From Escherichia coli (GTDB taxonomy: Bacteria; Pseudomonadota; Gammaproteobacteria; Enterobacterales; Enterobacteriaceae), in assembly GCF_016903815.1 (NCBI RefSeq), contig NZ_CP069974.1: 64,000 nt of DNA. The stretch is one strand, 5' to 3'. The stretch's first letter is position 1, and every line of letters begins with the position of its first letter. Below are positions 17,393-47,045 of this stretch, one piece after another. Under the pieces are notes generated by a model. The model was not told the origin of the DNA, did not search any database, and was given only the letters and a program-made list of their open reading frames with translations. The position numbers were made by a program, and so were the translations under genes.

Positions 17393-19776
17393 GTGCGACA
17401 GGAAGTCGCTTAACGTATTGTTTTACATTGATAAAACCAGCTATCCCATTAGCTGTAGCCTACCGGGACAGGCGTTGCCGGCAACGGCGGGGTCTGAAGC
17501 TCCCGGGACAACGAGAGCCGGGCGTCAGCCCGGGTAATGCCCCGTGAGGGGCTTTACCTTGCTGCAAGCATCATGCGGCAGGAGAGCAAGGCTGGTCAGA
17601 AGGGTTAACACATGTGAACTGTTGATAAACACCGTTATCGGCAACAGGCCAAAGATGCTGACAGGCCTGAACCAAAAGGTACGGGGTCCGGTTGCTACCT
17701 CGCGCACAGGGAGCACATGGGCGCAGAGACCCCCGGTGAAGAGACAGAACCCGCCCTGACCCTCTGTATGTTAAGCGGAACCTGGTAAACCCGTATCGCT
17801 GCCTCACAGGCAGGTGAACCGCAAGGAACACTGTTAGCGGTGCGGGCATAGGAGGACGGAAAAAGCGAATGCCCGGCTGTAATAACCGGGATACGGGGCA
17901 GGTTCCCCGACGCGAAAGCGGGCAGACTTCCGTCTGGTCTTTAATTGCATGAAAAGCTGTAAAGCAGTCAAAAGGATATCAGCGAGATGAATACACACAT
18001 CAGTGTGTCCACGATACCCCACCCGACAGGCTGGCACACCATAAACTGGAAAGCATGCCATGCCCGGGTGCGAAAGCTACAGTTACGGATTGCAAAGGCA
18101 ACCCGACAGCAACAATGGCGGCAGGTCAGAGAACTACAGCGCATCCTCACCCGCTCATTCTCCGGCAAAGCCGTGGCTGTCAGGCGTGTAACTGAAAATA
18201 CCGGTAAAAGGACACCCGGTATTGACGGAAAAATATGGCACACACCGAAGGAGAAATGGGAAGGAATATGCAGCCTGAATCTGTGTGGTTACAGGCCACA
18301 GCCACTACGGCGAATACATATCCCAAAATCAAACGGCAAAACGCGACCGCTGGGCATACCCACAATGAGGGACCGGGCCATGCAGGCACTGTGGCTGCTG
18401 GCTCTGGAACCCGTATCCGAGACCACTGCTGACCATAACAGCTATGGTTTCAGACCAATGCGCAGCACGCATGACGCCATTGAGTCCATTTTTCTGCGGA
18501 TGAGCCAGAAAGTATCGCCCAAATGGATACTGGAGGGCGATATTAAAGGGTGCTTCGATAACATCAGCCATGACTGGCTGCTTTCCCATATTCCGATGGA
18601 CAGGAGACTGCTTAAAAAATGGTTGAAAGCAGGTTACATGGAAAGAGGCGTGTTTAACCATACGAACAGCGGGACACCGCAGGGAGGCATCATATCCCCT
18701 GTTCTCGCCAACATGGCTCTGGACGGACTGGAGAAGGAACTGATGCAAACGTTCAGGAAAAGTGGTTATCACAGTGCAAAGCACCAGGTGAATTATGTGA
18801 GATATGCTGATGATTTCATCTGTTCAGGCAGCTCCCGTGAATTGCTGGAAAATGAGGTCAGACCACTGATTGCAGCTTTCATGCGCGAACGAGGGCTGGA
18901 ACTGTCGGAAGAAAAAACAGCGATCACACATATAGATAAAGGCTTCGACTTTTTAGGGCAGAACGTCAGGAAGTACAACGGTAAAATGCTGATTAAACCG
19001 TCGAAGAAAAACCTGAAGAACTTCCTCTGTAAAGTCAGAGAAATAATTAAACGCAATCCGACGCTCCCGGCATGGAAACTGATAGGCCAGCTAAACCCGG
19101 TGATCCGGGGATGGGCTACCTATCACCGACACGTCGTGGCGAAAGAAACATTTAATTATGTCGACACCCAAATCTGGCGAGCTATATGGCGATGGTGTGT
19201 AAGACGGCATCCCCGGAAAGGATTGCGGTGGATCGCCGGACGATACTTCTCCTTTGAAGGCAGGCGCTGGATCTTTAAAGCCATAACCCCGGAAGGGAAA
19301 ATTCTGACACTCTTCCGGGCAATGGAAACACCGATAAAGCGCCATATAAAAATCAAAGGCGAAGCAACACCATACACCCCCGGAATGGAAATCTACTTTG
19401 AACGTCGTCTGGATCTAATCTGGAAAGGCAAATCAAAGAAGATGAAGACAGTAGTTCAACTCTGGAAGAGGCAGGGGAAACACTGTCCGCAGTGCGGACA
19501 ACTCATAACCAACCAGACCGGATGGAATATACATCACCGGATCAGGAAAGTTATGGGCGGCAGTGACGAACTGACCAATCTCGAGTTGTTACATCCGAAC
19601 TGCCACCGACAGTTACACAGCAGGGAAGCCGGTGCTCACCGAAAGCACTTATAAAGGCTTGAGCGGAGTGCGGGGAAACTCGCACGCTCCGTTCTTAGGG
19701 GGCGGCGGCGCAGCAATGTGCCGCTGCTACCCGACCCGGCAGACAGGACAACACTGCAGTAGTCAGAATCAGAGCA
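17393..19776 (+). mobile_element. group II intron copy 1 (RT-maturase-HNH IEP); 3' boundary approximate
   Basis: Starts GTGCGACAGGAAGTCGC; 555-aa IEP in domain IV; domain V-like hairpin GAGCGGAGTGCGGGGAAACTCGCACGCTCCGTTC at 19661-19694; identity with copies 2 and 3 extends to ~19776, true 3' splice site probably within 19735-19776. Confidence 0.75.
17987..19654 (+). CDS. group II intron-encoded reverse transcriptase/maturase with HNH endonuclease domain
   Basis: RT motifs (GTPQGGIISP, YVRYADDF), maturase region, C-terminal CPQCG...HH...HPNCHRQLH. Confidence 0.9.
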   Translation: MNTHISVSTIPHPTGWHTINWKACHARVRKLQLRIAKATRQQQWRQVRELQRILTRSFSGKAVAVRRVTENTGKRTPGIDGKIWHTPKEKWEGICSLNLCGYRPQPLRRIHIPKSNGKTRPLGIPTMRDRAMQALWLLALEPVSETTADHNSYGFRPMRSTHDAIESIFLRMSQKVSPKWILEGDIKGCFDNISHDWLLSHIPMDRRLLKKWLKAGYMERGVFNHTNSGTPQGGIISPVLANMALDGLEKELMQTFRKSGYHSAKHQVNYVRYADDFICSGSSRELLENEVRPLIAAFMRERGLELSEEKTAITHIDKGFDFLGQNVRKYNGKMLIKPSKKNLKNFLCKVREIIKRNPTLPAWKLIGQLNPVIRGWATYHRHVVAKETFNYVDTQIWRAIWRWCVRRHPRKGLRWIAGRYFSFEGRRWIFKAITPEGKILTLFRAMETPIKRHIKIKGEATPYTPGMEIYFERRLDLIWKGKSKKMKTVVQLWKRQGKHCPQCGQLITNQTGWNIHHRIRKVMGGSDELTNLELLHPNCHRQLHSREAGAHRKHL

Positions 19777-25868: not shown

Positions 25869-28529
25869 GTAGGGTAGGGTACGTGTGGTCTTTCAAGATA
25901 AATGGCGAATATGTCCTGCTTATCTTGAGTTAGATCACCGTTACCCCCCCTCCGAACCGTACGTGCACCTTTCAATGCATACGGCTCTCCATTGCTAGCT
26001 TATTGGGGATAAACTCATTTAGCAGAATCCCCACTTGAGACAGGTGGTTGCAGGAGTATTCTTCCCTTTTCCTGTCTCAGATCGGGTAGTTTTCCGCTAT
26101 GTAACTTGTCGTGGCAACTTGCGCACAAAATCATCGTTTTCCGGCGGCGTGCGATCATCATTAGTTGCCACAGGCTGGGTTTATATCCGGCCTTACGACC
26201 TTTCTTCAGGTCTTTTAGCTTTCTGACATGATGTACTTCGCAGCGCCCAGTCTTCGCACAATACTCGCAGATCCTTGCCCCTAATCGACGCATGATCTCT
26301 GTTGTGCGGGTTGTGATATGTGCGGTTCTCGGTTCCGTATCGACAATCGTTGTTCGGTTGCGATTGACATGTTTGAGTTTGAAAACCTCAATCTTTCGGG
26401 ATCCATTTTTGGCCTGAACGGTAATAGCCAGATCTCCATTATTTTGCCGTAGCGATTTGGCGACTTTATTCACTGAACTACGTCGTTTATTCGCTAGGGT
26501 CTTAAAAAGGCTTATTTGCCATATGAAATATAATTTTGATAATTTATATTTCATGTCCAGCGCCAGACTGTAGTAGTTCGCCAATCCGCGCATTTCCGCG
26601 TTGAAAGTCAGAACAATTTCAGCTTCACTGAGATTTTGTAGACTTGAACGATGTACAGCCTTCACATTCTCATAACAGCCATATTTCTTTTGGTGACAAA
26701 ATTTAGCGGCTATATTGTCAGGAACGAAGAGCTGCACAATTCCTGTGGTGGATCTCCGGAGAGCGTGCCGCCCTTGCATTTTCTGCTTCAGCAATTTCTT
26801 TGCATCTGCCTGTCTGATTTCATAGCCTAAAAAATTAACTCCTTCTGAGATATGGCGGATCCTGGTCTTTGCTTCATTAACTTCCAATCCCAGTGAAGTA
26901 GTAATAAAGTTTCTGACCTGTCTTGATATATGTTCAGCATCTTTCTTCGAGCCGATGACACCAATTACGAAGTCATCAGCATATCGAACATAGTACATAC
27001 GCCTGAAGTTTGGATCGTTCATGACCTGAGATGGTATAGAACGTTTTTCTTCAAGCAGTCGTTCAATTTCTTTCTTTATGGCTTCTTTTTCTGATTCAGA
27101 ATCAGTTGCCATACCGTCTACTTTCTTTCGTAGTTTATGAATCTTATGGGCCAGCCTGTTCATATCTGGATTCGCTCTTCGTTTTGTACCGCTTGTATAT
27201 GCAGGAATTAAGTTCTGTTCTACAAAACGGTCCAGTTTGTCGAGGTATATATTTGCCAGTAAGGGAGAAATTATCCCACCTTGTGGCGTGCCAGAATATG
27301 AGCGATGGTATTTCCAATTGTCCACATATCCTGCCTTCAGCCACTGTTCGATTAATTTCAGGAAATTCTTATCCTTAATTTTCTCTGCCAGTGTATTCAG
27401 CAATAGTTTGTGGGGGATATTGTCAAAGAAACCTTTGATATCAACATCCACGATCCATTTAACTCCGTTCCAGACTGGACGAATAGATCTGAGCGCAGTT
27501 TCACACGAACGTTTTGGTCTGAATCCATGAGAGTGTTCAGAGAATACTGGTTCATAAACCCTTTCCAGAATAATTCTTGCTACTTCTTGCGCCAGTTTAT
27601 CGTCTCCACCTGGAATCCCCAGCGGTCTGGTTTTTCCGTCCTTTTTTGGGATCTGAACTCTGCGTACAGGTTTCGCTACGTATTCTCTACTCCGCAATGT
27701 TTTTGCCAGCTTCTCTGCTCTTTCGATAGAGAAGCCATCAATGGTATCTGTTGATACACCTTGAGTCAGTGCACCTGCATTGGCCCGTATATTCACGTAG
27801 GCTTGCAGCCACAGTCCGGGCTCACACGCAATTTTGTATAGATTACGTACTGGATACCCTTTTTTTGAAGCATCCTCAATTCCATCTAATCTTTTCTCAA
27901 GTTCATCAGGCAGCATTGGCTAACCCTCCTCTTAGAGATTGATGTATCTAACAACTGTCTCCCTTCCCCGCAGCACTGTGAGGCTTTCATCTCCCTTCCG
28001 GTTGATTTATACCTTTGCTGCTTCCGTATAATGCGGACTGCCGTAGCCCATTACAGGCCGACCTTGAGTACTATGGAGACTCCGCTACCATGCTGGGTAT
28101 AAATCCAGTTTAGGTAGTCCCGTAGTTTCACGGTGTGGAGATGCGATGTACTTAGGATGTCTTTCGATCGTTTAACTATTTCATCAATAGCTGGCCCGTT
28201 AGAGTGGTCACAATCAACGTAGGGCGGATTTCTTGTGCTATTACGGGAATAACGCTTCAATCGTTCTGCGTTATTGGTTTCCTGTTTCCCACATAGATCT
28301 CGACTTCAACAAACCCAGTTTATCCATATACATCTTGCATTGAGTGGTGATACTTATAACGATTTCCGTATTCACCACCCTTTTCTGTGGATGCTATGTT
28401 CACCTCTCCTTTTCAGGATCTCCGAGCCTGTTACCAAGCGAGGCTAACCACAGTATGCAATGGCTATACCACTAAGCCATGTTGCTTTTCATGCAACACT
28501 CCATAAAACACCGCGCTTCAACGGCGCAC
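25869..28529 (-). mobile_element. group II intron (LtrA-like IEP, IIA-like) inserted in ssb in sense orientation
   Basis: Minus-strand 5' end GTGCGCCGTTGAAGCGCGG directly after ssb codon 13; IEP 26015-27916; canonical domain V GAGCCGTATGCATTGAAAGGTGCACGTACGGTTC at 25954-25987 (minus); 3' end ...CCTAC followed by ssb exon 2. Confidence 0.85.
26015..27916 (-). CDS. group II intron reverse transcriptase/maturase (LtrA-like) with C-terminal HNH-like domain
   Basis: YSGTPQGGIISPLLANIYL, YVRYADDFVIGV, maturase region, C-terminal CEYC...HH...CASCHDKLH; closely resembles Ll.LtrB LtrA by recall. Confidence 0.9.
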   Translation of the reverse strand: MLPDELEKRLDGIEDASKKGYPVRNLYKIACEPGLWLQAYVNIRANAGALTQGVSTDTIDGFSIERAEKLAKTLRSREYVAKPVRRVQIPKKDGKTRPLGIPGGDDKLAQEVARIILERVYEPVFSEHSHGFRPKRSCETALRSIRPVWNGVKWIVDVDIKGFFDNIPHKLLLNTLAEKIKDKNFLKLIEQWLKAGYVDNWKYHRSYSGTPQGGIISPLLANIYLDKLDRFVEQNLIPAYTSGTKRRANPDMNRLAHKIHKLRKKVDGMATDSESEKEAIKKEIERLLEEKRSIPSQVMNDPNFRRMYYVRYADDFVIGVIGSKKDAEHISRQVRNFITTSLGLEVNEAKTRIRHISEGVNFLGYEIRQADAKKLLKQKMQGRHALRRSTTGIVQLFVPDNIAAKFCHQKKYGCYENVKAVHRSSLQNLSEAEIVLTFNAEMRGLANYYSLALDMKYKLSKLYFIWQISLFKTLANKRRSSVNKVAKSLRQNNGDLAITVQAKNGSRKIEVFKLKHVNRNRTTIVDTEPRTAHITTRTTEIMRRLGARICEYCAKTGRCEVHHVRKLKDLKKGRKAGYKPSLWQLMMIARRRKTMILCASCHDKLHSGKLPDLRQEKGRILLQPPVSSGDSAK

Positions 28530-29177: not shown

Positions 29178-31561
29178 GTGCGACAGGAAGTCGCTTAACG
29201 TATTGTTTTACATTGATAAAACCAGCTATCCCATTAGCTGTAGCCTACCGGGACAGGCGTTGCCGGCAACGGCGGGGTCTGAAGCTCCCGGGACAACGAG
29301 AGCCGGGCGTCAGCCCGGGTAATGCCCCGTGAGGGGCTTTACCTTGCTGCAAGCATCATGCGGCAGGAGAGCAAGGCTGGTCAGAAGGGTTAACACATGT
29401 GAACTGTTGATAAACACCGTTATCGGCAACAGGCCAAAGATGCTGACAGGCCTGAACCAAAAGGTACGGGGTCCGGTTGCTACCTCGCGCACAGGGAGCA
29501 CATGGGCGCAGAGACCCCCGGTGAAGAGACAGAACCCGCCCTGACCCTCTGTATGTTAAGCGGAACCTGGTAAACCCGTATCGCTGCCTCACAGGCAGGT
29601 GAACCGCAAGGAACACTGTTAGCGGTGCGGGCATAGGAGGACGGAAAAAGCGAATGCCCGGCTGTAATAACCGGGATACGGGGCAGGTTCCCCGACGCGA
29701 AAGCGGGCAGACTTCCGTCTGGTCTTTAATTGCATGAAAAGCTGTAAAGCAGTCAAAAGGATATCAGCGAGATGAATACACACATCAGTGTGTCCACGAT
29801 ACCCCACCCGACAGGCTGGCACACCATAAACTGGAAAGCATGCCATGCCCGGGTGCGAAAGCTACAGTTACGGATTGCAAAGGCAACCCGACAGCAACAA
29901 TGGCGGCAGGTCAGAGAACTACAGCGCATCCTCACCCGCTCATTCTCCGGCAAAGCCGTGGCTGTCAGGCGTGTAACTGAAAATACCGGTAAAAGGACAC
30001 CCGGTATTGACGGAAAAATATGGCACACACCGAAGGAGAAATGGGAAGGAATATGCAGCCTGAATCTGTGTGGTTACAGGCCACAGCCACTACGGCGAAT
30101 ACATATCCCAAAATCAAACGGCAAAACGCGACCGCTGGGCATACCCACAATGAGGGACCGGGCCATGCAGGCACTGTGGCTGCTGGCTCTGGAACCCGTA
30201 TCCGAGACCACTGCTGACCATAACAGCTATGGTTTCAGACCAATGCGCAGCACGCATGACGCCATTGAGTCCATTTTTCTGCGGATGAGCCAGAAAGTAT
30301 CGCCCAAATGGATACTGGAGGGCGATATTAAAGGGTGCTTCGATAACATCAGCCATGACTGGCTGCTTTCCCATATTCCGATGGACAGGAGACTGCTTAA
30401 AAAATGGTTGAAAGCAGGTTACATGGAAAGAGGCGTGTTTAACCATACGAACAGCGGGACACCGCAGGGAGGCATCATATCCCCTGTTCTCGCCAACATG
30501 GCTCTGGACGGACTGGAGAAGGAACTGATGCAAACGTTCAGGAAAAGTGGTTATCACAGTGCAAAGCACCAGGTGAATTATGTGAGATATGCTGATGATT
30601 TCATCTGTTCAGGCAGCTCCCGTGAATTGCTGGAAAATGAGGTCAGACCACTGATTGCAGCTTTCATGCGCGAACGAGGGCTGGAACTGTCGGAAGAAAA
30701 AACAGCGATCACACATATAGATAAAGGCTTCGACTTTTTAGGGCAGAACGTCAGGAAGTACAACGGTAAAATGCTGATTAAACCGTCGAAGAAAAACCTG
30801 AAGAACTTCCTCTGTAAAGTCAGAGAAATAATTAAACGCAATCCGACGCTCCCGGCATGGAAACTGATAGGCCAGCTAAACCCGGTGATCCGGGGATGGG
30901 CTACCTATCACCGACACGTCGTGGCGAAAGAAACATTTAATTATGTCGACACCCAAATCTGGCGAGCTATATGGCGATGGTGTGTAAGACGGCATCCCCG
31001 GAAAGGATTGCGGTGGATCGCCGGACGATACTTCTCCTTTGAAGGCAGGCGCTGGATCTTTAAAGCCATAACCCCGGAAGGGAAAATTCTGACACTCTTC
31101 CGGGCAATGGAAACACCGATAAAGCGCCATATAAAAATCAAAGGCGAAGCAACACCATACACCCCCGGAATGGAAATCTACTTTGAACGTCGTCTGGATC
31201 TAATCTGGAAAGGCAAATCAAAGAAGATGAAGACAGTAGTTCAACTCTGGAAGAGGCAGGGGAAACACTGTCCGCAGTGCGGACAACTCATAACCAACCA
31301 GACCGGATGGAATATACATCACCGGATCAGGAAAGTTATGGGCGGCAGTGACGAACTGACCAATCTCGAGTTGTTACATCCGAACTGCCACCGACAGTTA
31401 CACAGCAGGGAAGCCGGTGCTCACCGAAAGCACTTATAAAGGCTTGAGCGGAGTGCGGGGAAACTCGCACGCTCCGTTCTTAGGGGGCGGCGGCGCAGCA
31501 ATGTGCCGCTGCTACCCGACCCGGCAGACAGGACAACACTGCAGTAGTCAGAATCAGAGCA
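29178..31561 (+). mobile_element. group II intron copy 2
   Basis: Identical to copy 1 across the IEP and flanking RNA domains; same junction with the upstream repeat. Confidence 0.75.
29772..31439 (+). CDS. group II intron-encoded RT/maturase/HNH (copy 2)
   Basis: 555-aa protein identical to the copy 1 IEP. Confidence 0.9.
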   Translation: MNTHISVSTIPHPTGWHTINWKACHARVRKLQLRIAKATRQQQWRQVRELQRILTRSFSGKAVAVRRVTENTGKRTPGIDGKIWHTPKEKWEGICSLNLCGYRPQPLRRIHIPKSNGKTRPLGIPTMRDRAMQALWLLALEPVSETTADHNSYGFRPMRSTHDAIESIFLRMSQKVSPKWILEGDIKGCFDNISHDWLLSHIPMDRRLLKKWLKAGYMERGVFNHTNSGTPQGGIISPVLANMALDGLEKELMQTFRKSGYHSAKHQVNYVRYADDFICSGSSRELLENEVRPLIAAFMRERGLELSEEKTAITHIDKGFDFLGQNVRKYNGKMLIKPSKKNLKNFLCKVREIIKRNPTLPAWKLIGQLNPVIRGWATYHRHVVAKETFNYVDTQIWRAIWRWCVRRHPRKGLRWIAGRYFSFEGRRWIFKAITPEGKILTLFRAMETPIKRHIKIKGEATPYTPGMEIYFERRLDLIWKGKSKKMKTVVQLWKRQGKHCPQCGQLITNQTGWNIHHRIRKVMGGSDELTNLELLHPNCHRQLHSREAGAHRKHL

Positions 31562-31577: not shown

Positions 31578-31616
31578 CAGTAGCAGTAGCAGTAGCAGTA
31601 GCAGTAGCAGTAGCAG
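31578..31616. repeat. hexanucleotide simple sequence repeat (CAGTAG)x6
   Basis: cagtagcagtagcagtagcagtagcagtagcagtagcag directly 3' of intron copy 2; not expanded at the equivalent position after copy 3. Confidence 0.9.
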
Positions 31617-33815: not shown

Positions 33816-34046
33816 TCAGTTAAAAGCGCGTTTCAGTTCGAGTGTGCGGAGCACCTGCCCGAAGGCCGTGTTTTTCATGGCGGGGATGTGTACACCACGC
33901 CCCCGGTGAAAACTCCGGGCAATGTGTCGCCCGAAGGCTTTCAGCACGGGGTCAATTTCCGGCGCGGGGATGTCTTCGCGTCTGAAACGGGGATGACGGC
34001 GGGGCTTTACAGCCGCTGCGGAAGGTGAAACAATACTTACTGTCAT
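33816..34046 (-). CDS. small hypothetical leading-region protein (76 aa)
   Basis: ORF downstream (minus strand) of repeat copy 3; no motif recognised. Confidence 0.35.
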   Translation of the reverse strand: MTVSIVSPSAAAVKPRRHPRFRREDIPAPEIDPVLKAFGRHIARSFHRGRGVHIPAMKNTAFGQVLRTLELKRAFN

Positions 34047-34284
34047 AATTTAGCCTCTTATGACGTTAATTAATGAAACCGTAAAGACTGTTCGTGCAGT
34101 CTCTGCGGTGTGGATTAAGCAGGTCCCTGACCTGCTTTTTTCATATCTGCGTCTGACGTTCTCCGGTGTTTTCCTCCTTCTGTTCCTGCGTTCTCATTAC
34201 CTGCCAGCCGGATGACTGACAGAACACATAAATGCGTATTGCCGGAGCCTGAAATAAATCCTGATTTTTAAAGAACATCACCCG

Positions 34285-34848: not shown

Positions 34849-37233
34849 GTGCGACAGGAAGTCGCTTAACGTATTGTTTTACATTGATAAAACCAGCTAT
34901 CCCATTAGCTGTAGCCTACCGGGACAGGCGTTGCCGGCAACGGCGGGGTCTGAAGCTCCCGGGACAACGAGAGCCGGGCGTCAGCCCGGGTAATGCCCCG
35001 TGAGGGGCTTTACCTTGCTGCAAGCATCATGCGGCAGGAGAGCAAGGCTGGTCAGAAGGGTTAACACATGTGAACTGTTGATAAACACCGTTATCGGCAA
35101 CAGGCCAAAGATGCTGACAGGCCTGAACCAAAAGGTACGGGGTCCGGTTGCTACCTCGCGCACAGGGAGCACATGGGCGCAGAGACCCCCGGTGAAGAGA
35201 CAGAACCCGCCCTGACCCTCTGTATGTTAAGCGGAACCTGGTAAACCCGTATCGCTGCCTCACAGGCAGGTGAACCGCAAGGAACACTGTTAGCGGTGCG
35301 GGCATAGGAGGACGGAAAAAGCGAATGCCCGGCTGTAATAACCGGGATACGGGGCAGGTTCCCCGACGCGAAAGCGGGCAGACTTCCGTCTGGTCTTTAA
35401 TTGCATGAAAAGCTGTAAAGCAGTCAAAAGGATATCAGCGAGATGAATACACACATCAGTGTGTCCACGATACCCCACCCGACAGGCTGGCACACCATAA
35501 ACTGGAAAGCATGCCATGCCCGGGTGCGAAAGCTACAGTTACGGATTGCAAAGGCAACCCGACAGCAACAATGGCGGCAGGTCAGAGAACTACAGCGCAT
35601 CCTCACCCGCTCATTCTCCGGCAAAGCCGTGGCTGTCAGGCGTGTAACTGAAAATACCGGTAAAAGGACACCCGGTATTGACGGAAAAATATGGCACACA
35701 CCGAAGGAGAAATGGGAAGGAATATGCAGCCTGAATCTGTGTGGTTACAGGCCACAGCCACTACGGCGAATACATATCCCAAAATCAAACGGCAAAACGC
35801 GACCGCTGGGCATACCCACAATGAGGGACCGGGCCATGCAGGCACTGTGGCTGCTGGCTCTGGAACCCGTATCCGAGACCACTGCTGACCATAACAGCTA
35901 TGGTTTCAGACCAATGCGCAGCACGCATGACGCCATTGAGTCCATTTTTCTGCGGATGAGCCAGAAAGTATCGCCCAAATGGATACTGGAGGGCGATATT
36001 AAAGGGTGCTTCGATAACATCAGCCATGACTGGCTGCTTTCCCATATTCCGATGGACAGGAGACTGCTTAAAAAATGGTTGAAAGCAGGTTACATGGAAA
36101 GAGGCGTGTTTAACCATACGAACAGCGGGACACCGCAGGAAGGCATCATATCCCCTGTTCTCGCCAACATGGCTCTGGACGGACTGGAGAAGGAACTGAT
36201 GCAAACGTTCAGGAAAAGTGGTTATCACAGTGCAAAGCACCAGGTGAATTATGTGAGATATGCTGATGATTTCATCTGTTCAGGCAGCTCCCGTGAATTG
36301 CTGGAAAATGAGGTCAGACCACTGATTGCAGCTTTCATGCGCGAACGAGGGCTGGAACTGTCGGAAGAAAAAACAGCGATCACACATATAGATAAAGGCT
36401 TCGACTTTTTAGGGCAGAACGTCAGGAAGTACAACGGTAAAATGCTGATTAAACCGTCGAAGAAAAACCTGAAGAACTTCCTCTGTAAAGTCAGAGAAAT
36501 AATTAAACGCAATCCGACGCTCCCGGCATGGAAACTGATAGGCCAGCTAAACCCGGTGATCCGGGGATGGGCTACCTATCACCGACACGTCGTGGCGAAA
36601 GAAACATTTAATTATGTCGACACCCAAATCTGGCGAGCTATATGGCGATGGTGTGTAAGACGGCATCCCCGGAAAGGATTGCGGTGGATCGCCGGACGAT
36701 ACTTCTCCTTTGAAGGCAGGCGCTGGATCTTTAAAGCCATAACCCCGGAAGGGAAAATTCTGACACTCTTCCGGGCAATGGAAACACCGATAAAGCGCCA
36801 TATAAAAATCAAAGGCGAAGCAACACCATACACCCCCGGAATGGAAATCTACTTTGAACGTCGTCTGGATCTAATCTGGAAAGGCAAATCAAAGAAGATG
36901 AAGACAGTAGTTCAACTCTGGAAGAGGCAGGGGAAACACTGTCCGCAGTGCGGACAACTCATAACCAACCAGACCGGATGGAATATACATCACCGGATCA
37001 GGAAAGTTATGGGCGGCAGTGACGAACTGACCAATCTCGAGTTGTTACATCCGAACTGCCACCGACAGTTACACAGCAGGGAAGCCGGTGCTCACCGAAA
37101 GCACTTATAAAGGCTTGAGCGGAGTGCGGGGAAACTCGCACGCTCCGTTCTTAGGGGGCGGCGGCGCAGCAATGTGCCGCTGCTACCCGACCCGGCAGAC
37201 AGAACAACACTGCAGTAGTCAGAATCAGAGCAG
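34849..37233 (+). mobile_element. group II intron copy 3
   Basis: Identical to copies 1 and 2 except a single substitution in the IEP. Confidence 0.75.
35443..37110 (+). CDS. group II intron-encoded RT/maturase/HNH (copy 3, Gly to Glu substitution in RT motif)
   Basis: GTPQEGIISP instead of GTPQGGIISP (gga to gaa); otherwise identical to copies 1 and 2. Confidence 0.9.
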   Translation: MNTHISVSTIPHPTGWHTINWKACHARVRKLQLRIAKATRQQQWRQVRELQRILTRSFSGKAVAVRRVTENTGKRTPGIDGKIWHTPKEKWEGICSLNLCGYRPQPLRRIHIPKSNGKTRPLGIPTMRDRAMQALWLLALEPVSETTADHNSYGFRPMRSTHDAIESIFLRMSQKVSPKWILEGDIKGCFDNISHDWLLSHIPMDRRLLKKWLKAGYMERGVFNHTNSGTPQEGIISPVLANMALDGLEKELMQTFRKSGYHSAKHQVNYVRYADDFICSGSSRELLENEVRPLIAAFMRERGLELSEEKTAITHIDKGFDFLGQNVRKYNGKMLIKPSKKNLKNFLCKVREIIKRNPTLPAWKLIGQLNPVIRGWATYHRHVVAKETFNYVDTQIWRAIWRWCVRRHPRKGLRWIAGRYFSFEGRRWIFKAITPEGKILTLFRAMETPIKRHIKIKGEATPYTPGMEIYFERRLDLIWKGKSKKMKTVVQLWKRQGKHCPQCGQLITNQTGWNIHHRIRKVMGGSDELTNLELLHPNCHRQLHSREAGAHRKHL

Positions 37234-40419: not shown

Positions 40420-41103
40420 TTACGCAGCCTCCGGCATAAACCAGTCATCATTCGCGGCCCCCTGCTGCATGGCCCGTTGCACGGCGGCAAGGCGTTGCTG
40501 CCCGGCACGGTGATACTGCTCAAGCAGCTCGATACCGATATACCGGCGTCCGGACTGGAGGGCGGCGACGCAGGTTGAGCCGCTGCCTGCAAACGGGTCC
40601 AGCACAATTGCGTTCGGGTGTGTGAAGCTCTCAATCAGCGGTTGCAGGCTGGTAACGGGCTTTTCCGTCGGGTGATGACGATTGCCAGAATATTTCCAGC
40701 CCAGCACGTCCGGCAGCGGGTTTTGTGGCAGACGTGGACGGCCTTTTGCCAGGATGTAGGCGCATTCGTGGCGATAGCCCACATATGCGGCCTTCGATGT
40801 GTAGTTTTTGGTGAAGACCAGGTGACCAACAACGCTGAATCCCGCATTTTTCCAGGCGGCCATAAAGCGATCGACGCGGTTCCAGCCGTAGAAGCTCACC
40901 ATCAGCGCGTCTTTTTTGAGTACGCGGTACATTTCATTACAGGCCGGTTGCAGCCATTCATCGGTTTTATCGCCGGCGATGGTGCGCCCGGAACGGTCAC
41001 GAAAACCGACGAGATATGGCGGGTCAGTTAATATGAAATCAATGGCGTTATCAGGGATACGCGTCATAACATCGATGCAGTTACCAAGGACAAAACGGGA
41101 CAT
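40420..41103 (-). CDS. orphan DNA methyltransferase (DPPY motif, N6A/N4C type)
   Basis: 227 aa with DPPY catalytic motif near the N-terminus and FAGSGST AdoMet-binding motif later; no cognate restriction gene. Confidence 0.75.
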   Translation of the reverse strand: MSRFVLGNCIDVMTRIPDNAIDFILTDPPYLVGFRDRSGRTIAGDKTDEWLQPACNEMYRVLKKDALMVSFYGWNRVDRFMAAWKNAGFSVVGHLVFTKNYTSKAAYVGYRHECAYILAKGRPRLPQNPLPDVLGWKYSGNRHHPTEKPVTSLQPLIESFTHPNAIVLDPFAGSGSTCVAALQSGRRYIGIELLEQYHRAGQQRLAAVQRAMQQGAANDDWFMPEAA

Positions 41104-41487
41104 AACAACGCTCCTTCTCTTACAGAGGGCACCGGGAGGGCCCCCCTGTGGTGCCCGTTCCCCGCTGCCTGTGGGCTGTTCACCGCGTCCGGTAACGGGT
41201 CAGGCCGACCGTGGAATATCGCAGCCGTCGTCTTTTTGACGGCGAGAATATGCCGCGAAAGCGGCTTGAAGGGCGTTCATCAGAAAAGGGCGACAGGCTG
41301 GCGTACACTGTCACCGGTGCCAGCCGGGAGCAGTAAAAGCGCCCGTCCCGTGCCCGCCGGACGCGGGACACTGACCACAGGCAGCGTTCCTGCCGCGCCG
41401 CGTCAGCCGGCGCAGTAAAAAGAGGAGCACGGCGACATCCTTTGTCGGAAAAGAAACGGGCGGTTGCCCGCCCGTCTCCGTCATACT

Positions 41488-42414
41488 TCATCCCCCGTAA
41501 TGCGCCACCTTGTCGACTATCCACTCCGGCGCGGTGACTTCCGGCAGCTCATCATCATCTGTCGGGGAAGACCATTCCAGTTCCCCCCACAGCACATCAA
41601 CAAGCTCTCCACGCTCATATCGCTGCCAGCCACAGAAATTGCAGCCCTGTTCGGCGTACCAGTGCTCCAGCGTGCAGCCGAAACGGCGGCTTAATTCTGC
41701 AACAACGTTGCTTTCCGGCTGACACCACGGCGTGTCGAAATCCACTTGAATGAAGTTTTCTCCCTGACGGCTGATATTCACCTCATACCCCACAGGCCAC
41801 TTCACGCCATACTGTTCCGTATACCAGTGATACGCAGAAGGAACACCGTTCAGAACACCACCGTTAAAGCCATTCACTTCAACATCCAGGCGGGTGGGCA
41901 GAACCGTCAGCAGGTCAAACGGCATGGTTTTTTCCGGCAGTACATTGTCACACAGACGGTTCCACCACACCGATACATCCTCGTTACTCCAGAAGCCACA
42001 CCAGTCACCTCTTTTTGCGGTGAAATGCACGGTGATGGTTTCCCTGACCTCATCCGGTAATCCTTCCCAGCGACGCTGGCCAGTACCACTCTGCAGCCAG
42101 AGTTCATGCAGCATCAGGCAGTTTTGCTCATCCAGCAGTACACCGTTCTGCAGGTGTGTCAGCCAGCGGGTGAACGCGATATTCTCCGGCGATACAACAC
42201 CACGTCCGGCATCCGTCAGTCCGGGGCACGGTTCAAACTGCACATCTTCAGTGGTCTGCAGAAGTCCGGCACTTCCGGCCAGAAACAGCTGAATACCTTC
42301 ATTTGTGGCGCGGCGATAAAGCGGTGTGACGGCACCGCTGGCCAGTCGTTTAATCTCAGCAATCTGTGCCGGTTCACCAGAAAAATGCATACGATTCGAG
42401 CACCAGTTTGGCAT
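41488..42414 (-). CDS. hypothetical leading-region protein (from MPNWCSNRMHF...)
   Basis: ORF with Trp/Cys-rich sequence; no motif recognised. Confidence 0.45.
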   Translation of the reverse strand: MPNWCSNRMHFSGEPAQIAEIKRLASGAVTPLYRRATNEGIQLFLAGSAGLLQTTEDVQFEPCPGLTDAGRGVVSPENIAFTRWLTHLQNGVLLDEQNCLMLHELWLQSGTGQRRWEGLPDEVRETITVHFTAKRGDWCGFWSNEDVSVWWNRLCDNVLPEKTMPFDLLTVLPTRLDVEVNGFNGGVLNGVPSAYHWYTEQYGVKWPVGYEVNISRQGENFIQVDFDTPWCQPESNVVAELSRRFGCTLEHWYAEQGCNFCGWQRYERGELVDVLWGELEWSSPTDDDELPEVTAPEWIVDKVAHYGG

Positions 42415-42785
42415 GGGAATTCTCCTCTCACATGCGGCCTCCATCAGGCCGTGCCGCACCTGTAACCGGGCGACCGCATACGAATGCAGGTGCGGCCCCG
42501 AAGCCGCAGCGCGTGGAGGAGGAACGACGAAACGTGACCGGGTGAGGAGGCCGGCGACAGCGACACACTTGCATCGGATGCAGCCCGGTTAACGTGCCGG
42601 CACGGCCTGGGTAACCAGGTATTTTGTCCACATAACCGTGCGCAAAATGTTGTGGATAAGCAGGACACAGCAGCAATCCACAGCAGGCATACAACCGCAC
42701 ACCGAGGTTACTCCGTTCTACAGGTTACGACGACATGTCAATACTTGCCCTTGACAGGCATTGATGGAATCGTAGTCTCACGCTG

Positions 42786-43180
42786 ATAGTCTGATCGACA
42801 ATACAAGTGGGACCGTGGTCCCAGACCGATAATCAGACCGACAACACGAGTGGGATCGTGGTCCCAGACTAATAATCAGACCGACGATACGAGTGGGACC
42901 GTGGTCCCAGACTAATAATCAGACCGACGATACGAGTGGGACCGTGGTCCCAGACTAATAATCAGACCGACGATACGAGTGGGACCATGGTCCCAGACTA
43001 ATAATCAGACCGACGATACGAGTGGGACCATGGTCCCAGACTAATAATCAGACCGACGATACGAGTGGGACCGTGGTCCCAGACTAATAATCAGACCGAC
43101 GATACGAGTGGGACCGTGGTCCCAGTCTGATTATCAGACCGACGATACAAGTGGAACAGTGGGCCCAGAGAGAATATTCA
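42786..43180. repeat. sopC: sopC partition centromere (tandem 43-bp repeats with internal GGGACCGTGGTCCC palindrome)
   Basis: About 8-9 tandem 43-bp units directly downstream of sopB. Confidence 0.9.
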
Positions 43181-43256
43181 GGCCAGTTATGCTTTCTGGC
43201 CTGTAACAAAGGACATTAAGTAAAGACAGATAAACGTAGACTAAAACGTGGTCGCA

Positions 43257-44228
43257 TCAGGGTGCTGGCTTTTCAAGTTCCTTAAGAATGGCCTCAATTT
43301 TCTCTATACACTCAGTTGGAACACGAGACCTGTCCAGGTTAAGCACCATTTTATCGCCCTTATACAATACTGTCGCTCCAGGAGCAAACTGATGTCGTGA
43401 GCTTAAACTAGTTCTTGATGCAGATGACGTTTTAAGCACAGAAGTTAAAAGAGTGATAACTTCTTCAGCTTCAAATATCACCCCAGCTTTTTTCTGCTCA
43501 TGAAGGTTAGATGCCTGCTGCTTAAGTAATTCCTCTTTATCTGTAAAGGCTTTTTGAAGTGCATCACCTGACCGGGCAGATAGTTCACCGGGGTGAGAAA
43601 AAAGAGCAACAACTGATTTAGGCAATTTGGCTGTGTTGATACAGCGGGTAATAATCTTACGTGAAATATTTTCCGCATCAGCCAGCGCAGAAATATTTCC
43701 AGCAAATTCATTCTGCAATCGGCTTGCATAACGCTGACCACGTTCATAAGCACTTGTTGGGCGATAATCGTTACCCAATCTGGATAATGCAGCCATCTGC
43801 TCATCATCCAGCTCGCCAACCAGAACACGATAATCACTTTCGGTAAGTGCAGCAGCTTTACGACGGCGACTCCCATCGGCAATTTCTATGACACCAGATA
43901 CTCTTCGACCGAACGCCGGTGTCTGTTGACCAGTCAGTAGAAAAGAAGGGATGAGATCATCCAGTGAGTCCTCAGTAAGCAGCTCCTGGTCACGTTCATT
44001 ACCTGACCATACCCGAGAGGTCTTCTCAACACTATCACCCCGGAGCACTTCAAGAGTAAACTTCACATCCCGACCACATACAGGCAAAGTAATGGCATTA
44101 CCGCGAGCCATTACTCCTACGCGCGCAATTAACGAATCCACCATCGGGGCAGCTGGTGTCGATAACGAAGTATCTCCAACCGGTTGAGTATTGAGCGTAT
44201 GTTTTGGAATAACAGGCGCACGCTTCAT
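43257..44228 (-). CDS. sopB: SopB (ParB-type partition protein)
   Basis: 323 aa matching F SopB by recall; adjacent to sopA and sopC. Confidence 0.9.
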
Positions 44229-45403
44229 TATCTAATCTCCCAGCGTGGTTTAATCAGACGATCGAAAATTTCATTGCAGACAGGTTCCCAAATAGAAAGA
44301 GCATTTCTCCAGGCACCAGTTGAAGAGCGTTGATCAATGGCCTGTTCAAAAACAGTTCTCATCCGGATCTGACCTTTACCAACTTCATCCGTTTCACGTA
44401 CAACATTTTTTAGAACCATGCTTCCCCAGGCATCCCGAATTTGCTCCTCCATCCACGGGGACTGAGAGCCATTACTATTGCTGTATTTGGTAAGCAAAAT
44501 ACGTACATCAGGCTCGAACCCTTTAAGATCAACGTTCTTGAGCAGATCACGAAGCATATCGAAAAACTGCAGTGCGGAGGTGTAGTCAAACAACTCAGCA
44601 GGCGTGGGAACAATCAGCACATCAGCAGCACATACGACATTAATCGTGCCGATACCCAGGTTAGGCGCGCTGTCAATAACTATGACATCATAGTCATGAG
44701 CAACAGTTTCAATGGCCAGTCGGAGCATCAGGTGTGGATCGGTGGGCAGTTTACCTTCATCAAATTTGCCCATTAACTCAGTTTCAATACGGTGCAGAGC
44801 CAGACAGGAAGGAATAATGTCAAGCCCAGGCCAGCAAGTGGGCTTTATTGCATAAGTGACATCGTCCTTTTCCCCAAGATAGAAAGGCAGGAGAGTGTCT
44901 TCTGCATGAATATGAAGATCTGGTACCCATCCGTGATACATTGAGGCTGTTCCCTGGGGGTCGTTACCTTCCACGAGCAAAACACGTAGCCCCTTCAGAG
45001 CCAGATCCTGAGCAAGATGAACAGAAACTGAGGTTTTGTAAACGCCACCTTTATGGGCAGCAACCCCGATCACCGGTGGAAATACGTCTTCAGCACGTCG
45101 CAATCGCGTACCAAACACATCACGCATATGATTAATTTGTTCAATTGTATAACCAACACGTTGCTCAACCCGTCCTCGAATTTCCATATCCGGGTGCGGT
45201 AGTCGCCCTGCTTTCTCGGCATCTCTGATAGCCTGAGAAGAAACCCCAACTAAATCCGCTGCTTCACCTATTCTCCAGCGCCGGGTTATTTTCCTCGCTT
45301 CCGGGCTGTCATCATTAAACTGTGCAATGGCGATAGCCTTCGTCATTTCATGACCAGCGTTTATGCACTGGTTAAGTGTTTCCATGAGTTTCATTCTGAA
45401 CAT
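44228..45403 (-). CDS. sopA: SopA (ParA-type partition ATPase); likely start at MKLMETL (45394)
   Basis: Walker [17 protein letters not shown]; matches F SopA. Confidence 0.9.
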
Positions 45404-45724
45404 CCTTTAATCATTGCTTTGCGTTTTTTTATTAAATCTTGCAATTTACTGCAAAGCAACAACAAAATCGCAAAGTCATCAAAAAACCGCAAAGTTGTTT
45501 AAAATAAGAGCAACACTACAAAAGGAGATAAGAAGAGCACATACCTCAGTCACTTATTATCACTAGCGCTCGCCGCAGCCGTGTAACCGAGCATAGCGAG
45601 CGAACTGGCGAGGAAGCAAAGAAGAACTGTTCTGTCAGATAGCTCTTACGCTCAGCGCAAGAAGAAATATCCACCGTGGGAAAAACTCCAGGTAGAGGTA
45701 CACACGCGGATAGCCAATTCAGAG

Positions 45725-46779
<1,055 letters not shown>

Positions 46780-46839
46780 CTAAATAAAAAAGAGTCAATA
46801 AGCAGGGATAACTTTGTGAAAAAACAGCTTCTTCTGAGG

Positions 46840-47045
46840 GCAATCTGTCACAGGGTTAAGGGCAATTTGTCACAGACAGGACTGTCATTTGAGGGTAATT
46901 TGTCACACTGAAAGGGCAATTTGTCACAACACCTTCTCTAGAACCAGCATGGATAAAGGCCTACAAGGCGCTCTAAAAAAGAAGATCTAAAAACTATAAA
47001 AAAAATAATTATAAAAATATCCCCGTGGATAAGTGGATAACCCCA
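46840..47045. other. ori2 (oriS) of RepFIA: four iterons, AT-rich stretch and two DnaA boxes
   Basis: Four direct repeats (GAGGGCAATCTGTCACAGG etc.) at 46840-46930, AT-rich region, GTGGATAAGTGGATAAC DnaA-box pair near 47023-47040. Confidence 0.8.

Follow-up and report, generated by a model that had tools for sequence, protein, structure and literature searches.

The tandem array lying directly downstream of sopB in the window (the whole stretch of 64,000 nucleotides of Escherichia coli DNA that was analysed) is, to judge from its sequence and its context, almost certainly a functional sopC centromere (parS_F), belonging to the type Ia sopABC system of an IncFIA replicon on a natural F-like plasmid and representing the commonest natural allelic form of this centromere. 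As a whole the window resembled an F-like E. coli plasmid, and its best matches were clinical E. coli plasmids (99.8% identity over 25 kb). The repeat unit, the binding sites, the end units, the gene context and the sopAB operator all assign the array fully to the sopC family by comparison. A reading as repE iterons or as another repeat family was considered and rejected, since unit, motif and flanks were identical to those of F sopC.

Tandem Repeats Finder (TRF) detected a single tandem array with a period of 43, which it placed at 42796-43169 and scored at 636 (8.7 copies, 94% matches). A separate repeat search gave an uninterrupted start-to-start spacing of 43 bp. Read in register, starting from the unique left anchor, the whole array covered 42761-43190 (about 430 bp) and encompassed eight intact units with one degenerate unit at each end:

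42761-42803, minus strand: distal degenerate sopC repeat, 28/43 to the unit consensus, without the 16-bp inverted repeat
42804-43147, minus strand: eight intact sopC units of 43 bp, with a predicted 16-bp SopB-binding inverted repeat in every one
43148-43190, minus strand: sopB-proximal degenerate sopC repeat, 23/43 to the consensus, with TGGAACAGTGGGCCCA replacing the binding site

The distal degenerate unit is the last repeat in the direction of the sop operon and the counterpart of the "12th" repeat of F, while the sopB-proximal one is the counterpart of its "1st" repeat. The 16-bp sites began at 42808, 42851, 42894, 42937, 42980, 43023, 43066 and 43109. When each distinct unit was given a letter, the order of the intact units was a b c c d d c e, so that two exact types (c three times, d twice) accounted for five of the eight. 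Seven of the eight harbored the exact consensus TGGGACC-Pu-Py-GGTCCCA, with centres A-C or A-T on the sop strand. Read on the plus strand, the centre was G-T in six units, namely five with the consensus TGGGACCGTGGTCCCA and unit 2, whose site at 42851 was a TGGGATC variant (TGGGATCGTGGTCCCA) with one change in one repeat arm, a change also found in F. The adjacent units 5 and 6 (42976-43061) displayed an A-T centre with a CATG core (TGGGACCATGGTCCCA). The motif TGGGAYC-RY-GGTCCCA had no occurrence outside the array within the 64-kb window, which places the array far beyond chance. The preliminary description of this DNA had set the limits of the array within about 25 bp of the true ones; its eight or nine 43-bp units agree with the eight intact units plus a degenerate one read in register, and the two variant units and the degenerate terminal unit that it mentioned were recovered as units 5 and 6 and as the sopB-proximal repeat.

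Genes encoding the two partition proteins and the replication initiator were found next to the array, on the same strand:

43257-44228, minus strand: sopB (parB_F), open reading frame for the centromere-binding protein, 323 aa
44228-45394, minus strand: sopA (parA_F), Walker-type partition ATPase and autorepressor, 388 aa
45417-45494, minus strand: sopAB promoter/operator, from direct reading of the sequence
45982-46737, minus strand: repE, open reading frame for the IncFIA replication initiator (NCBIfam equivalog RepE, 538 bits, far above the cutoff)

The stop codon of sopB lay 66 bp from the array, with sopC directly downstream. SopB was identical to its F homologue at 321 of 323 positions (99%; differences E18G and A88S) and was recognized by the NCBIfam equivalog PRK13698 for plasmid ParB (637 bits, cutoff 274), while SopA was identical to that of F over all 388 residues and matched equivalog PRK13705 (872 bits, cutoff 725). 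The operator comprised three direct CTTTGC hexamers at 13-bp intervals (45489-45494, 45470-45475 and 45451-45456) and one inverted GCAAAG (45417-45422) located 28 bp downstream of the direct hexamers, which is the layout described for PparAB_F (PMC8465637); TRF also scored this region as a 19-bp repeat in 2.4 copies. The RepE protein accession was common to the annotations of F, pEGY3 and pU302L, and the repE replicon is, from this context, what the sop system partitions. Judged by these homologies, the sopABC partition module of an IncFIA replicon is present here in full.

The F reference (NC_002483 / AP001918) was counted with the same tools as the window. Its sopC array was scored at 10.7 copies by TRF and, in the same register, had ten intact units (a b c c c d e c c e) between the same two degenerate ends. 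The "12 direct repeats of 43 bp" of the literature thus include both degenerate end repeats. According to Pillet et al. (2011), the 1st and 12th repeats of F are not bound by SopB in vitro and only 10 of the 12 are; divergent first and last sopC repeats without the consensus site are described in the same work (PMC3177203), and ten 16-bp motifs are given for F sopC elsewhere (PMC6238139). Lengths in register as counted here correspond to those tabulated by Pillet et al. as 11 to 12 for F, 9 to 10 for pU302L, and 5 for O157:H7 plasmids of about 92 kb to 6 repeats for pO157, and this last correspondence validates the conversion between the two counting conventions. The window therefore has eight SopB-binding units against ten in F, or 10 repeats against 12 in the counting of the literature, and its array is shorter by exactly two units (86 bp). 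The ten-unit order of F was absent from the window, which carries a pU302L-type allele instead. That the window has fewer units than F was thus rightly noticed beforehand, and the comparison with F sopC did return different counts; the gap, however, is two units and not three to four. The figure of twelve for F holds only when both degenerate ends are counted, in which case the window has ten.

In F, binding of SopB dimers to the 16-bp inverted repeats nucleates a large SopB cluster, which spreads onto the flanking DNA. The resulting SopB-sopC complex stimulates the ATPase of nucleoid-bound SopA, so that plasmid copies come to lie on opposite sides of the division plane, and SopA aided by SopB-sopC represses the sopAB promoter. 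Near-identity to F suggests that the window module would work alike: SopB dimers bound to the eight 16-bp repeats would nucleate a SopB cluster, the complex would stimulate the SopA ATPase on the nucleoid so that plasmid copies come to flank the division plane, and SopA with SopB-sopC would repress the sopAB promoter. We infer SopB binding at the window sites, including those with the A-T core, from their identity to sites assayed in PMC3177203, where an A-T-centred site (probe C3) bound SopB like the wild type.

The number of repeats would be of little consequence for these functions. Among 22 natural sopC centromeres the repeats ranged from 3 to 17, and their number was judged "not an important feature" (Pillet et al. 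2011, PMC3177203). A single repeat is sufficient for the stability of mini-F (Biek & Shi 1994 and Lane 1987, as cited in PMC3177203), one SopB site nucleates a focus (PMC7205306), and SopB spreading has been proposed to offset differences in repeat number (PMC3177203). Given the published sufficiency of one repeat and the natural range of 3 to 17, the two-unit deficit relative to F should not alter partition appreciably, and the earlier suggestion that the repeat number could affect partition or incompatibility finds no support here. A small quantitative effect on the strength of incompatibility or on sopAB repression is conceivable, and nothing here points to one.

Fewer SopB sites could nevertheless be adaptive or consequential, with partition fidelity, IncD incompatibility or sopAB autoregulation altered relative to F, a view to which we give very little probability. 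When supplied in trans, sopC exerts centromere-based incompatibility and helps to repress sopAB (Bouet 2005; Yates 1999; cited through PMC3177203 and PMC8465637), so that a dosage effect of site number is conceivable, and the 8-site allele is very successful in clinical IncF plasmids. Against this stand the single repeat that is enough for mini-F in the studies cited in PMC3177203, the range of natural centromeres and the possible compensation by SopB spreading. As the 6 kb around the allele are identical in pU302L, its abundance is more simply put down to hitch-hiking with plasmid lineages that were successful, and no sign of selection on the 8-site allele was obtained in the present sequence comparisons. 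It is similarly improbable that the 8-site allele, the doubled A-T-core unit and the linked SopB substitutions E18G and A88S form together a selected tuning rather than a neutral combination. If they did, less titration of SopB, weaker IncD incompatibility or altered repression of sopAB would be conceivable effects, and the clinical IncF (FIA) plasmids with this allele might owe part of their success to it. The reading that we favor is that of a functional centromere with an ordinary number of sites.

The window allele proved widespread. A 1,201-bp segment around the array was 100% identical in the best 40 of the complete plasmids listed, which came from E. coli, Klebsiella and Salmonella, and at least 718 records had their best place at 99% identity or more to this segment (BLAST), although a query of this kind cannot separate repeat-number alleles, because off-diagonal matches gave 10-11 places per record. 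Array lengths were therefore obtained with a query in which the 200-bp left flank was joined to the 200-bp right flank, the matched span minus 400 giving the length of the array. The E-value for this flank query was set to 1e-80, as a looser run was diluted by partial Klebsiella matches, and lengths were taken from even-step samples of 59 records per collection.

In PLSDB, 1,667 records displayed a full flank match and 26 of the 59 sampled (44%) had the array length of the window. The other lengths, expressed as units in register, were 13 (one record), 11 (one, F itself), 10 (one), 8 (two) and 7 (one), followed by the shorter classes 6 (twelve), 5 (ten), 4 (three) and 3 (two). RefSeq complete E. 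coli genomes gave 1,563 full flank matches, with the window length in 28 of 59 sampled (47%). Some of the records in these databases are short-read or hybrid assemblies, so that a fraction of the length classes could be mis-assembled. Nearly all sampled array lengths were exact multiples of 43, and across both samples the in-register lengths besides that of the window were 3, 4, 5, 6, 7, 8, 10, 11 and 13. Within the two samples, arrays as long as that of F were encountered only in F and, among the RefSeq records, in one laboratory strain chromosome and one 10.6-kb laboratory-made plasmid. The window thus carries the modal natural sopC allele, and laboratory F is an outlier; the repeat number of the textbooks looks specific to laboratory F and not typical of natural plasmids.

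The laboratory strain whose chromosome carries the F-length array is tolC-, and its array presumably belongs to an integrated F. The sop flanks also matched E. coli chromosomes at 32 places in the complete genomes, presumably integrated F-like plasmids. At one of these places (NZ_CP121294.1, 3838489-3839166) the sopC array measured 278 bp, a length that whole 43-bp units do not account for.

Array length nevertheless tracked plasmid lineage, which speaks against mis-assembly as the source of the length classes. Where the flanks were 99.8% identical, mostly in O157:H7 plasmids of about 92 kb, nearly all records had five units in register. In the annotated loci that were fetched, the SopB variant E18G/A88S (WP_000817036.1) accompanied the 8-site sopC in pEGY3 and pU302L, while F-type SopB (WP_000817031.1) accompanied arrays of 9, 5, 3 and 2 intact units. 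This suggests that the allele marks a lineage of the FIA module.

The length variation itself was traced by comparing ten sopC alleles, of 2 to 12 intact units, by unit type. The alleles differed by whole internal units and occasional point variants, while their end units were shared: the distal first unit was an identical a-type in seven of the ten and a close variant (i or k) in the other three, and the proximal degenerate unit ended nine of the ten, once with a point variant, while the tenth ended in a fusion unit. Whole-unit differences, along with lengths that are nearly all multiples of 43, are what slipped-strand mispairing or unequal recombination leaves behind, and units of 43 bp would accordingly be gained and lost in register, through replication slippage or unequal recombination between near-identical repeats. 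The window array, with two whole units fewer than F and a second A-T-centred one, agrees with such a process. The window allele itself was probably inherited as such, as the surrounding 6 kb are identical to those of pU302L.

The allele with the fusion unit was that of CP057445.1, in which the usual degenerate first repeat is missing and the array ends in a hybrid unit, h: an intact unit with a consensus SopB site supplies its first half, and the distal portion of the terminal degenerate repeat its second. This unit is the product of an in-register deletion by which the last functional repeat became fused with the terminal repeat.

Assembly collapse had also been raised beforehand. An F-like 12-repeat sopC in which the assembler merged two near-identical units is technically possible, given the near-identity of the units and an array longer than typical short reads, but it is effectively ruled out. 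The same array, with the same variant order and the doubled CATG-core unit that F lacks, is 100% identical in the best 40 listed plasmids, which are independent of one another, and in pU302L. Its length is modal in the samples from both PLSDB and the RefSeq complete genomes, where arrays of F length are confined to F and laboratory constructs or strains. Mere collapse of the F order, a b c c c d e c c e, would moreover not yield that of the window, as a second d unit would have to be gained.

Other repeated and mobile features were observed in the window away from the sop locus. Three apparently identical full-length group II introns were found on the plus strand (17437-19735, 29222-31520 and 34893-37191), each with an RF02012 D1-D4 match followed about 2.2 kb downstream by an RF00029 match to domain V/VI, with equal scores across the copies. 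A fourth and different RF00029 match was located at 25869-25989 on the minus strand. Related plasmids annotate one to three ltrA genes in the region matching the window introns, so that the group II intron copy number varies between close relatives. A perfect CAGTAG hexamer repeat (6.5 copies) was present at 31578-31616, just downstream of the second intron copy, and AS-pc01 (RF02875, an antisense RNA to pHK01_035) was detected at 34041-34140 on the plus strand (98.9 bits, gathering score 79).

The result matters very little. It removes a false alarm, as the array is not mis-assembled and as a centromere is not unusual. It does call for caution when the 12 repeats of the textbooks are taken as a standard, as this number is that of laboratory F and includes two end repeats that do not bind SopB, while natural F-type plasmids most often have 10 repeats (8 binding sites) with a wide range around this value. 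FIA replicons could in addition be assigned to lineages cheaply from the length of sopC and the order of its units.

Compared with F, the window displayed the same 43-bp unit, the same 16-bp site (TGGGACC-PuPy-GGTCCCA) and the same position downstream of sopB. The 200-bp flanks of sopC were 100% identical between the two, both degenerate end repeats were identical as well, and the PsopAB operator was arranged alike. The differences were internal to the array: the window has two adjacent A-T-core (d) units whereas F has one, and a single unit with the GTCTGATTA spacer variant (e type) whereas F has two.

The sop locus of the window was matched exactly by pU302L of Salmonella Typhimurium (NC_006816), which contained positions 41000-47000 of the window, with the array, sopB, sopA and repE, without a mismatch. 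In Table 1 of Pillet et al. (2011) this plasmid is listed with 10 x 43 bp, seven consensus sites and one mutation at a key position (PMC3177203). The window gave the same numbers of repeats, of consensus sites and of variant sites, and its sopC is by sequence an allele already known and catalogued in 2011 as that of pU302L. The likeness concerns the sop locus, whereas the remaining backbone differs between the two plasmids and several group II intron copies are found in the window. Other natural alleles, such as those of pO157 (6 repeats), pVM01 (13) and pKPN3 (17) (PMC3177203), share the repeat family, the organisation and the degenerate ends, and differ by whole units and occasional point variants, while the relatives from Klebsiella and Yersinia have diverged flanks or units of 44-45 bp.
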